DNA from: a phage
Length of the DNA stretch: 392 nucleotides
Strand: one strand, 5' to 3'
Sequence record: AF039883.1
The notes beneath the pieces are model-generated. The model saw only the letters and a program-made list of their open reading frames with translations. It searched no databases and was not told the DNA's origin. This document shows, piece by piece, positions 2 to 392 of this stretch. The translations under genes were made by a program, and so were the position numbers. How positions within the stretch are numbered: the first letter of the stretch is position 1; each line of letters begins with the position of its first letter.

Positions 2-124
2 GTTGATAAATTTGACAGAAAACGTTTACTAGAGGGTATCTACGATAATTCTACATCGATAAATGAATTACTAGAACATGCCCAAATATACGATAAGAGC
101 TGGATGTTAATATGGAGATCATAG
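2..124 (+). CDS. 3' end of an upstream protein-coding gene (5'-truncated by the window edge); hypothetical protein, C-terminal 40 aa ...VDKFDRKRLLEGIYDNSTSINELLEHAQIYDKSWMLIWRS
   Basis: Hand translation of frame 2 is open from position 2 to a TAG stop at 122-124, while the other two + frames hit stops early (TGA at 4-6; TAG at 28-30). The peptide is hydrophilic and protein-like. The only in-frame ATG is at 104-106, so any real gene must start upstream of the window. This ORF is not in the supplied ORF track, presumably because it is short and lacks a start. Confidence 0.45.
   Translation, partial: VDKFDRKRLLEGIYDNSTSINELLEHAQIYDKSWMLIWRS
95..99 (+). promoter_or_regulatory. Possible weak ribosome-binding site (AAGAG) for the 77-aa membrane protein gene
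   Basis: AAGAG at 95-99 is about 12 nt upstream of the ATG at 112; a weaker GGA at 102-104 has a 7-nt spacer. Both are poor matches to AGGAGG, so initiation may depend on coupling to the upstream gene. Confidence 0.25.
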
Positions 125-345
125 TAATTATTTTAGCAGTTATGTTATTTAGTGTAACATTTGTATCATTTGCTATTATGCACAGAGCTAGAGAACTAGC
201 GGAAGATATAATAAAATTACGTGGTGAGTTAGCTGCTCTAAAATTACAGCGTGAGGCTTTAAAGTTGTTTGTGGTTCAGGGTAGCGTAGAACATACAACA
301 GAAGACTTCATCACGTATCTCAAACGTTACATGGGAATTAAATAA
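112..345 (+). CDS. Small (77 aa) predicted single-pass membrane protein with N-terminal transmembrane helix and leucine-rich coiled-coil-like C-terminal region; function unknown
   Basis: ORF from the supplied track, ATG at 112-114 and TAA at 343-345. Residues 2-23 (EIIVIILAVMLFSVTFVSFAIM, nt 115-180) form an uncharged hydrophobic stretch of transmembrane length, followed immediately by basic residues (HRAR). Residues about 25-55 (nt 184-276) carry Leu/Ile at 3-4 residue spacing (I33, L36, L40, L43, L50, F53), consistent with an amphipathic helix or short coiled coil. The ATG at 112 is the first ATG after the in-frame TAA at 94-96; the next in-frame ATG (142) would cut the hydrophobic helix in half. 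A possible weak Shine-Dalgarno AAGAG lies at 95-99. Confidence 0.65.
   Translation: MEIIVIILAVMLFSVTFVSFAIMHRARELAEDIIKLRGELAALKLQREALKLFVVQGSVEHTTEDFITYLKRYMGIK
333..337 (+). promoter_or_regulatory. Putative ribosome-binding site (GGGAA) for the downstream gene starting at 345
   Basis: Purine-rich GGGAA is partly complementary to the 16S anti-SD and has a 7-nt spacer to the ATG at 345. It lies inside the 3' end of the preceding CDS, as is common in coupled genes. Confidence 0.4.
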
Positions 346-392
346 TGGAAACTCTTTTTCTTTTAATGCTCGTAGGTTCTCTGCTAGTTATT
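345..392 (+). CDS. 5' end of a downstream gene (3'-truncated by the window edge); N-terminus METLFLLMLVGSLLVI is hydrophobic, so a putative membrane protein
   Basis: ATG at 345-347 shares its A with the TAA stop of the preceding gene (TAATG). A GGGAA Shine-Dalgarno-like motif at 333-337 sits 7 nt upstream of the ATG. The frame stays open for 16 codons to the window end. The hydrophobic run starts at residue 4 with no basic n-region, which fits a transmembrane helix better than a classic Sec signal peptide. Confidence 0.5.
   Translation, partial: METLFLLMLVGSLLVI

Follow-up and report, generated by a model that had tools for sequence, protein, structure and literature searches.

T5.021 of T5-like phages: a small dispensable early protein with a predicted membrane anchor, leucine zipper and conserved C-terminal helix

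The window considered here, the whole analysed stretch of 392 nucleotides of phage DNA (record AF039883.1), is 99% identical at the DNA level to the genome of coliphage T5, where it corresponds to coordinates 12649-13039. It covers the end of one gene, a complete second gene and the start of a third (Table 1). By alignment, the complete gene is an allele of T5 gene T5.021, also recorded as YP_006849.1, as ORF020 in AY587007 and as AAX11957.1 (Escherichia phage T5); it differs from the T5 version by two amino acid changes, the proteins being 97.4% identical. The window allele has serine at position 14, where T5 has isoleucine, and histidine at position 24, where T5 has arginine; S14 occurs in one of 79 sequences. 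The exact protein was not found in a collection of 15 billion sequences.

Table 1. Features of the 392-nucleotide window, in window coordinates.
Feature	Position	Strand	Basis
3′ end of T5.022: last 40 codons and TAG stop (122-124)	2..124	+	Translation; T5 annotation L001 7834-8124
Weak Shine-Dalgarno-like GGA, 7 nt before the ATG, within T5.022	102..104	+	Sequence
T5.021 (ORF020) coding sequence, 77 aa, DUF7237 / PHROG 6021	112..345	+	ATG at 112, TAA at 343-345
Single transmembrane anchor, residues 2-23, predicted N-out	115..180	+	Hydropathy, AF2 helix, family charges
Juxtamembrane basic patch, residues 24-27, HRAR (RRAR in T5), putative topology determinant	181..192	+	Sequence, family
Putative four-heptad leucine zipper, residues 26-54	187..273	+	Heptad register, column conservation, AF2 helix
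Predicted C-terminal amphipathic helix, residues 59-74, EHTxEDFIxYLKRYM	286..333	+	Invariant columns; AF2 helix 63-73
Shine-Dalgarno-like GGA for T5.020, inside the last T5.021 codons	334..336	+	Sequence; Shivani RBS at the same position
First 16 codons of T5.020 (61 aa, small single-pass membrane protein)	345..392	+	T5 annotation

The start of T5.021 overlaps T5.022 by 13 nt. The GGA preceding this start lies inside T5.022, which is consistent with translational coupling, and the homologue CPT_Shivani21 has an annotated ribosome-binding site at the same position. A search for RNA elements in the window gave no Rfam match at E ≤ 1, and no support was found for two minus-strand ORFs of 23 and 36 aa that lie antisense to T5.022 and T5.021.

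A sequence-only reading of this DNA had left the protein unassigned and outside any named family, which does not hold: besides being T5.021, it matches Pfam DUF7237 (PF23884) with 135.3 bits (E 8.5e-40; gathering cut-off 27 bits), residues 1-77 aligning to positions 1-77 of the 77-position model, and PHROG 6021 with 149.8 bits (E 3.9e-44, 1-77/77). The precomputed PF23884 assignment is found on all 76 homologue clusters, and T5.021 has likewise been given PHROG 6021 in a published data set (PMC11879866, supplementary file 8). Both are catalogue names without function attached, and T5.021 is thus an ordinary, already catalogued ORFan that is re-identified here. The label ‘minor tail protein’, present on a few homologue records only, was rejected for a 77-aa membrane protein encoded in the early region beside the terminal repeat. 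A literature search returned no paper on DUF7237, T5p021 or its accessions, while ‘T5.021’ led to one unrelated paper. The T5 bNACHT study deals with orf008 and orf015 only, and T5-like phages lie outside the coverage of HIDEN-SEQ.

The 77-aa coding sequence proposed earlier at this place was recovered with the same sequence. Its length is only modestly unusual, since a complete ORF of at least 77 aa arises in 99 of 5000 mononucleotide shuffles of the 34% GC window, so that conservation has to decide the case. Homologues occur in 355 phage records, forming 76 protein clusters, and intact 77-aa frames extend across two genera with identity as low as 44%. Pairwise dN/dS among 26 distinct alleles has a median of 0.20, with values of 0.15-0.28 in all three segments of the protein, and the other two forward frames contain 5-14 stops in the homologues. 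T5.021 is a genuine gene under purifying selection.

The family, which falls within DUF7237, is restricted to T5-like phages (Tequintavirus/Epseptimavirus). An exhaustive hmmsearch of 1.84 billion representatives gave eight hits, four of them strong and representing the family itself. The remaining hits include a distant 76-aa member (P0322), from a T5-like contig of metagenomic origin in which the gene order is unchanged, and a 40-aa frameshifted fragment of the DUF7237 family (P0320); two others, P0319 and P0321, were discarded as repeat-protein artefacts. A profile search of the PDB yielded coiled-coil noise only (designed CC peptides, Maf bZIP, BST2; best E 0.037), Foldseek with the T5.021 model found no PDB matches and nothing below E 3 in BFVD, PADLOC returned nothing, and NCBIfam gave sub-threshold matches only (FtsL, L29, XrtX-associated).

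The genes T5.022-T5.021-T5.020-T5.019 form a tight string with overlapping stops and starts. The T5.021 stop and the T5.020 start share one base (TAATG), and this junction is the same in all 30 fetched loci carrying T5.021, including a distant metagenomic contig (L030); in each of the 30, T5.021 stands in the early region directly upstream of T5.020 and T5.019 homologues. Upstream of T5.022, a promoter-like TTGACG-17-TATAAT (11/12, with TG; L001 7774-7802) coincides with an annotated promoter, and no terminator-like site was found on the + strand from there to L001 10900, beyond T5.018. Transcription of T5.021 from the promoter upstream of T5.022 occurs only after the second-step DNA transfer, and the homologue in phage Bas33 reaches TPM values of 154/159 at 20 min. 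T5.021 sits in an early operon. Its neighbours are equally anonymous: T5.022 belongs to PHROG 9887 of unknown function, and T5.022, T5.020, T5.019 and T5.018 match no Pfam, NCBIfam or PADLOC family, only PHROGs of unknown function. The AlphaFold model of T5.019 is unusable (pLDDT 41), so the gene module gives no functional clue.

T5.021 is dispensable on laboratory E. coli. In the CRISPRi-ART screen it was scored ‘Not Fit’ (mean −4.35, 5 guides), as were T5.018-T5.024 (PMC11879866, supplementary file 16). For a gene this short and translationally coupled, silencing by CRISPRi may be only partial. Bas33 (HildyBeyeler), which was isolated and propagated on E. coli K-12, carries a 1-nt deletion in its copy, whereby the last 21 aa, with the C-terminal helix, are replaced. 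Three metagenomic clusters are frameshifted too, and in-frame 3-aa deletions occur among the homologues. The gene has been lost from several phages whose isolation host was E. coli or Salmonella: SP01, HdH2 and SelmaRatti are without both T5.022 and T5.021, and phA11 and phC11 share the SP01-type junction. Phages devoid of T5.021 still retain T5.020 and T5.019; T5.020 occurs in 432 records against 355 for T5.021, about 77 more, and stands without it in SP01, HdH2 and Bas34. A strict pairing of T5.021 with T5.022, suggested by 355 records each and by the joint deletions, was dismissed, as SP-3 and S124 have T5.021 without T5.022. Since T5.021 and its neighbours occur separately, no neighbour is an obligatory partner. 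T5.021 is thus a facultative element of T5-like genomes, always placed ahead of T5.020, and Bas34 (gene absent), Bas33 (frameshifted) and T5 (intact) offer a natural comparison set for a phenotype screen.

A gene that is not required in the laboratory, is frameshifted in Bas33 and the three metagenomic clusters, is deleted in several phages and tolerates 3-aa deletions might be regarded as a decaying or functionless ORF kept only by its embedding in the operon. This seems hardly credible: the low dN/dS ratios hold in all three segments, the full-length frames are intact at the divergence given above, the invariant residues cluster towards the C-terminus, in the last third of the protein, and the heptad and charge patterns are kept even in the most distant member.

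As to the architecture of the protein, the hydrophobic helix proposed earlier for residues 2-23 is borne out by a 19-residue Kyte-Doolittle mean that peaks at 2.84 over residues 3-22, by an uninterrupted apolar run at residues 3-23 and by a model helix with pLDDT above 94. The HRAR patch noted behind it is indeed present in the window, the T5 reference having RRAR. The family shows a consistent distribution of charges around the anchor: the protein begins with Met-Glu in 79 of 81 sequences, residues 1-3 are free of Lys and Arg in 80 of 81, and two to four Lys/Arg lie just past the anchor (residues 20-30) in all 81. The placing of the coiled coil in the cytoplasm by the positive-inside rule is strengthened by this pattern. 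An N-out/C-in topology is predicted because of this rule and because short acidic N-tails can be translocated by the proton-motive force (PMF), as in the Pf3 coat protein. T5.021 lacks a positively charged N-region and a signal-peptidase site, and it contains no cysteines.

The reverse orientation, N-in/C-out, would place the zipper in the periplasm, as in FtsB/FtsL/DivIC or in SPO1 gp56, a protein that binds FtsL/DivIC, and would make T5.021 a factor of divisome interference, superinfection exclusion or antiholin type. Phages are known to encode small single-pass proteins that block division, such as the 79-aa SPO1 gp56 (bioRxiv 10.1101/2020.02.06.938217), and the anchor and zipper fall in register in sub-threshold matches to FtsL (NF049847, E 0.01, residues 4-48) and DivIC (PF04977, E 0.09, residues 9-55). 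These matches score only 15.5 bits against a cut-off of 50 and 13.0 bits against 28.9, respectively, and hhalign probabilities against the E. coli proteins are 0.3% for FtsB and 0.8% for FtsL. The charges speak against N-in in 81 of 81 sequences, the features listed above (N-region charge, cysteines, signal-peptidase site) are missing, and the 54-residue ectodomain would lack the beta-rich C-terminal part through which FtsB and FtsL act. We consider this orientation improbable. The FtsB/DivIC/FtsL type named among the possibilities in the sequence-only reading thus finds sub-threshold profile matches, hhalign probabilities below 1% and a predicted topology opposite to its own, and on this comparison T5.021 is not a member of these families.

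Topology also bears on a second class named there, that of lysis regulators and holin partners, and on spanins. An i-spanin likewise has an N-terminal anchor and then a coiled coil; the product of the next gene, T5.020 (the would-be o-spanin), is a small membrane protein in which a Cys is conserved; and the holin of T5 belongs to the T4 T type, the T4 holin being controlled by small antiholins. A role for T5.021 in the lysis cassette as i-spanin, holin or antiholin is nevertheless very improbable. The holin and endolysin genes (T5.041/T5.040) belong to a different transcription unit, 7 kb upstream, and the spanin genes of this phage type are annotated elsewhere: the lysis-expert annotation of Shivani assigns the i-spanin to CPT_Shivani47 and the o-spanin to CPT_Shivani45, both adjacent to the holin region, and calls CPT_Shivani21, the homologue of T5.021, ‘hypothetical’. 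The 54 residues past the anchor are too short to span the periplasm (the periplasmic coiled-coil domain of an i-spanin typically has more than 100), and the charge bias predicts the wrong topology, C-in. Homologues of T5.020 carry ...LLIC, ...VVCC, ...IVVC or ...IIIC, where the residue before Cys is I, V or C and never G, A or S, so that they have no lipobox of the form [LVI][ASTVI][GAS]C. Moreover, the gene is dispensable and deleted in several phages.

The layout described earlier for T5.021, an anchor, a Leu/Ile-periodic coiled coil and a short polar tail, stands for its first two parts. All d positions of the zipper are Leu (L29/L36/L43/L50) and the a positions are A26, I33, L40, R47 and V54, giving an apolar a/d occupancy of 7/9. 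In the single sequence the heptad signal is weak (p~0.04; 857 of 20000 shuffles), and the a/d columns are conserved in the family, remaining mostly apolar in the most distant member P0322, where a33 and d43 are Gln. Across g-e′ the zipper pairs D32 with R37, E39 with K44 and Q46 with K51, the first pair being present in 76 and the second in 77 of 81 sequences. At least four heptads, apolar a and d positions, Leu at d and complementary g-e′ charges are features of parallel dimeric leucine zippers, and the conserved salt-bridge pairs suggest that T5.021 forms a parallel dimer.

The third part of the description has to be replaced: in place of a short polar tail, the last ~20 residues form what appears to be a conserved amphipathic helix. 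AlphaFold2, run on a 71-sequence alignment, gives one continuous helix at residues 2-60, a break at 61-62 and a second helix at 63-73 (mean pLDDT 84). The best conserved part of the protein is residues 44-77, i.e., the end of the zipper with the C-terminal helix, and all of 79 aligned sequences agree in having G57, S58, H61, E64, D65, K71, Y73 and G75, of which G57-S58 form a turn that precedes this helix. The C-terminal helix (residues 59-74) is presumed to be a partner-binding element.

A candidate to pair with T5.021 is T5.020, and the two together, rather than the T5.021 homodimer, might be the working unit, a hetero-oligomer of single-pass anchors with juxtamembrane helices, resembling FtsB/FtsL but facing the cytoplasm and possibly docking T5.019. 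T5.020 is a second small membrane protein with the same plan (Met-Glu start, anchor, helical tail), the one-base overlap of the two genes is kept in all 30 fetched T5.021 loci including the distant contig, and both genes are under purifying selection (dN/dS 0.20 and 0.13). Against such a pair stand the records of T5.020 alone, the free recombination of alleles between the two genes, the heptad pattern of T5.020, which is not significant (6221 of 20000 shuffles), and the g-e′ charges of T5.021, which are self-complementary. The two proteins share no sequence similarity that would indicate paralogy, and no covariation was seen between their anchor types. On balance, the hetero-oligomeric pair is rather unlikely.

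The caution voiced at the outset that architecture alone gives no function was right. Our preferred reading, which we hold with slightly better than even confidence, is that T5.021 serves an accessory function as a dimeric adaptor that is tethered to the membrane and faces the cytoplasm. On insertion into the inner membrane, the acidic N-terminus, two residues long, would come to lie outside and the rest of the protein in the cytoplasm. Directly below the membrane the zipper would join two copies in parallel, a homodimer being favoured by the matching g-e′ charges (D32-R37′, E39-K44′), and residues 44-77 would then serve as a surface for binding something else. With low certainty, such a dimer could act in the early phase by holding or sequestering at the inner membrane a protein from the cytoplasm, either one of the co-translated phage products (T5.020, T5.022, T5.019) or a host factor close to the membrane. 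We would expect an accessory role tied to particular hosts or conditions, as in host takeover or counter-defence, rather than a core function in lysis, division or the virion.

A bolder version, to which we give little credence, makes T5.021, with or without T5.020, an effector whose tethered zipper would present the EDFIxYLKR helix to a membrane-proximal host machine. Candidate targets would be the FtsA/ZipA-FtsZ interface or a membrane-associated defence sensor; the motif may loosely resemble the C-terminal peptide of FtsZ, which takes part in that interface. If this were true, the patchy presence of the gene among T5-like phages would stem from counter-defence or takeover directed at particular hosts.

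Most early genes of the classical model phage T5 are still without a function, and small membrane proteins rank with the most difficult to assign; the present finding leaves this unchanged. What is added to DUF7237 is a working model comprising an N-out/C-in topology, a self-complementary four-heptad zipper and a conserved C-terminal helix for interaction.

Among known systems, FtsB/FtsL/DivIC resemble T5.021 in being short single-pass proteins in which an N-terminal anchor is followed directly by a leucine-zipper-like helix. T5.021 differs in the lack of significant homology, in its opposite predicted topology, in having no periplasmic C-terminal domain, and in being phage-encoded and dispensable. 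SPO1 gp56 is a non-essential component of a host-takeover module that acts early. It is a Bacillus phage protein that blocks division through FtsL/DivIC (bioRxiv 10.1101/2020.02.06.938217). Like T5.021, it is a single-pass membrane protein of ~79 aa from a lytic phage; unlike T5.021, and compared by description, it has a central anchor (residues 37-59), an N-in/C-out orientation and an essential extracellular C-terminus. Its host is Gram-positive, and it blocks division, whereas no division phenotype is known for T5.021.

With i-spanins of the lambda Rz type, T5.021 shares the N-terminal anchor, the coiled coil and a gene for a small membrane protein directly downstream. However, its predicted orientation is wrong, its soluble part has about one third of the usual length, it lies outside the lysis region, and T5.020 has no lipobox. 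The Pf3 coat protein is alike in its very short acidic N-tail, single apolar helix and basic C-flank, and this analogy predicts Sec-independent, YidC/PMF-assisted N-out insertion of T5.021; Pf3 coat is a virion protein without a zipper, and the resemblance concerns the mode of insertion only. T5.021 of T5 itself is the same gene at the same position, between T5.022 and T5.020.

The window matches phage T5 (NC_005859 12649-13039, minus strand) with 99.0% identity over 391 of its 392 bases, and many other T5-like phages with 96-98%; the five differences from the T5 reference lie at positions 71, 152, 182, 240, and 392. Its 77-residue frame, whose extent and translation in the sequence-only reading agreed exactly on recheck, is T5.021 (YP_006849.1), annotated in T5 as 'hypothetical protein, contains single transmembrane domain' and listed in the independent T5 record AY587007 as ORF020. 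The window allele carries S14 in the anchor (position 152), where serine is found only here (of 79 family sequences, 72 have Ile and 6 have Phe), and H24 (position 182) where T5 has arginine; its exact 77-residue sequence has no match in a collection of 15 billion proteins. T5.021 is a phage ORFan of unknown function that was already annotated and catalogued, and genes of this kind are nothing unusual in the early regions of large virulent phages.

The protein had been called unassigned, which does not hold because it matches Pfam PF23884 (DUF7237) from end to end (135 bits against a cut-off of 27) and PHROG 6021 (E 3.9e-44), though both names carry no function. The profile-based homology search that had been proposed as a check retrieves a catalogued family (DUF7237, E 8.5e-40). 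A profile search over all 1.84 billion representative proteins returned eight matches, of which four are the DUF7237 family itself and two are eukaryote-like repeat proteins matched in many short stretches. The others are P0320, a 40-residue fragment that agrees with the first 25 residues of the family before a frame change, and P0322, a distant 76-residue member (E 2e-4), whose metagenomic contig keeps the T5-like order of 95, 76, 68, and 198 residues in which stops overlap starts. In tblastn, homologues came only from Tequintavirus and Epseptimavirus, phages infecting Escherichia, Salmonella, Shigella, Citrobacter, and Klebsiella. Among solved and predicted structures, nothing resembles T5.021 beyond generic coiled coils; PADLOC gave no match for the protein, and Rfam none in the window.

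Since about 2% of shuffles of this AT-rich window contain a complete frame as long, ORF length is weak evidence alone, and it is the comparative data that settle that T5.021 is a real gene. Homologues are present in 355 phage records and form 76 protein clusters, nearly all of exactly 77 residues. The median pairwise dN/dS for 26 distinct alleles is 0.20 (anchor 0.28, zipper 0.16, tail 0.15), and the other forward frames bear many stops in the homologues.

Within the early region, T5.021 sits about 2.5 kb in from the left terminal repeat boundary and shares its strand with the early genes around it. No terminator-like site was found on the + strand between the promoter upstream of T5.022 and L001 10900, past T5.018. 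The genes T5.022, T5.021, T5.020, and T5.019 each overlap or abut the next, and weak GGA Shine-Dalgarno elements, which match the annotated ribosome-binding sites of phage Shivani, lie within the preceding gene; this arrangement points to probable translational coupling along the T5.022-T5.019 string. By RNA-seq, the homologue in the T5 relative HildyBeyeler (Bas33), bas33_0164, reaches TPM values of 154 and 159 at 20 min after infection, dropping to 23 and 14 with daunorubicin, when infection is arrested after first-step transfer (PMC13250531 Dataset S1). The drop is consistent with an early-region location outside the first-step-transfer DNA.

Features of the T5.021 region and its variants (L001, fetched T5 locus; L029, HildyBeyeler locus; other L numbers, loci of relatives)
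Feature	Position	Remarks
T5.021	window 112-345	77 residues
T5.022, 3' end	stop at window 122-124	last 40 codons; overlaps T5.021 by 13 nt
T5.020, 5' end	window 345-392, running on to L001 8530	first 16 codons; ATG at 345, one base common to the T5.021 stop
Invariant motif	window 304-330	residues 65-73
T5.023	L001 7395-7841	upstream of the window
Sigma-70-type promoter site	L001 7774-7802	near-consensus TTGACG-17-TATAAT with extended TG; coincides with annotated promoter just upstream of T5.022
Bas33 1-nt deletion	window 279-280; L029 ~1508	G57 codon
Junction without T5.022/T5.021, SP01	L032 ~1090-1165	
Junction without T5.022/T5.021, HdH2	L033 1044-1050	
Junction without T5.022/T5.021, SelmaRatti	L034 1044-1067	
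Mosaic alleles, SP-3 and bobsandoy	L026 2501-2734; L006 2501-2734	

In the T5 genome-wide CRISPRi-ART screen, T5.021 was scored 'Not Fit' (5 guides, with a mean fitness of -4.35), the score also given to all genes from T5.018 to T5.024 (PMC11879866 supplementary file 16). Natural variants exist as well. In HildyBeyeler, for which E. coli K-12 was used for isolation and propagation (PMC13250531), a single-nucleotide deletion yields a 74-residue product with 18 unrelated residues in place of the conserved C-terminal helix; past the deletion, the new-frame stop has been lost (TAG to TGG) and another created. This frameshifted copy is still transcribed according to the published RNA-seq, and the shifted frame recurs in three metagenomic clusters. 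T5.022 and T5.021 are absent as a block from Salmonella phage SP01, Escherichia phage HdH2, and SelmaRatti (Bas34), where the stop of the T5.023 homologue directly meets the T5.020 start; phA11 and phC11 have the SP01-type junction too. Record counts agree with absence of the pair from some T5-like phages: T5.021 and T5.022 each occur in 355, T5.020 in 432, T5.019 in 440, and close relatives of the T5 holin in about 436. SP-3 and S124 have T5.021 without T5.022. Given the screen, the frameshifted and absent copies, and these counts, T5.021 is a gene under selection yet facultative.

Several other variants were noted. In-frame three-residue deletions remove I-K-L from the zipper of one family sequence (P0009), shifting the heptad register, and V-S-F from the anchor of two others (P0023, P0046). 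The SP-3 gene has a GTG start codon. The SP-3 and bobsandoy alleles join an Epseptimavirus-type N half to a T5-type C half, which implies recombination within the 234-bp gene. T5.023, adjoining the region of gain or loss, has weak PHROG endonuclease/HNH matches (E 9e-9 and 3e-5) via a Cys/His-rich segment.

The architecture proposed in the sequence-only reading was largely right: the hydrophobic segment is clear (Kyte-Doolittle 19-mer maximum 2.84, apolar run 3-23) and the heptad segment stands, but the supposed short polar tail does not, the last 20 residues and the zipper end being the best conserved parts. Leucine occupies every d position (29, 36, 43, 50), with A26/I33/L40/R47/V54 at a, a pattern better than 95.7% of shuffles for the single sequence and conserved in its a/d columns among 79 sequences; P0322, the remotest family member recovered, has I/L/Q/I at d and A/Q/V/I/V at a. 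The g/e pairs are complementary (D32-R37 in 76 and E39-K44 in 77 of 81 sequences, also Q46-K51), which by coiled-coil rules would be the textbook mark of a zipper that pairs as a parallel homodimer. From an alignment of 71 sequences, AlphaFold2 predicts one helix for residues 2-60 and, after an interruption at 61-62, another for 63-73 (mean pLDDT 84). L8, L12, L50, F53, G57, S58, H61, E64, D65, K71, Y73, and G75 are invariant in the 79-sequence alignment, and the mean majority fraction is 0.92 for residues 44-55, 0.91 for 56-77, and 0.83 for the anchor. The invariant motif D-F-I-x-Y-L-K-R near the C-terminus may loosely resemble D-I-P-x-F-L-R-K, the peptide conserved at the FtsZ C-terminus, a putative likeness that is weaker in P0322 (DFIKHLKA).

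T5.021 is a conserved, non-essential early-region gene, transcribed in infected cells, whose product is a single-pass protein. This protein would insert N-out/C-in, and its copies may pair in parallel via a self-complementary four-heptad zipper immediately beneath the membrane, leaving an invariant surface (residues 44-77) that might bind a partner, putatively either a neighbour translated along with it or a host protein close to the membrane. From this predicted insertion, dimer, and binding surface comes the suggestion that T5.021 is a dimeric adaptor tethered to the membrane, its early-phase role being accessory, e.g., in host takeover or counter-defence.

In the main rival reading, the working unit would be a hetero-oligomer of T5.021 and T5.020. 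T5.020 lies directly downstream of T5.021 in 30/30 fetched loci carrying the latter, and both T5.020 and T5.019 also occur without T5.021. T5.020 encodes another small single-pass protein, of 61 residues (Met-Glu start, anchor, conserved Cys at the anchor end, helical tail; PHROG 5799, no Pfam family, dN/dS 0.13) and is unannotated in AY587007, which has a gap between ORF020 and ORF019; the structure model of T5.019 (pLDDT 41) is unusable. Less likely than this rival are a periplasmic FtsB/FtsL-like role, a part in lysis, and a 'junk ORF'. T5.021 is unlikely to be a spanin because the soluble part has only 54 residues, the predicted orientation is wrong, T5.020 as the o-spanin partner has no lipobox, and the holin and endolysin genes (T5.041/T5.040) are 7 kb distant; moreover, the Center for Phage Technology's annotation of Shivani places the i-/o-spanin at CPT_Shivani47/CPT_Shivani45 and the T5.021 homologue is hypothetical there. 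The 'minor tail protein' label on homologues in H8, phiLLS, and ESCO40, supported neither by the early-region position nor by a 77-residue membrane-protein sequence, is probably a propagated annotation error.

Among known systems, FtsB/DivIC and FtsL both align in register but score far below threshold (13 bits against 28.9 and 15.5 bits against 50), and hhalign with the E. coli FtsB and FtsL sequences gave probabilities below 1%; their topology is, moreover, opposite to that predicted for T5.021. The positive-inside argument for a cytoplasmic coiled coil, already made from the single sequence, gains from a charge pattern kept family-wide: 79/81 sequences begin with Met-Glu, 80/81 are free of K/R in residues 1-3, and 81/81 carry 2-4 K/R in residues 20-30. 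Since the N-terminus has neither a positively charged n-region nor a signal-peptidase motif, the anchor is not a cleaved signal peptide. An acidic two-residue N-tail leading into an apolar helix with basic residues after it is typical of N-out/C-in mini-proteins, for example the Pf3 coat, and the like order of these elements in T5.021 predicts the same orientation.
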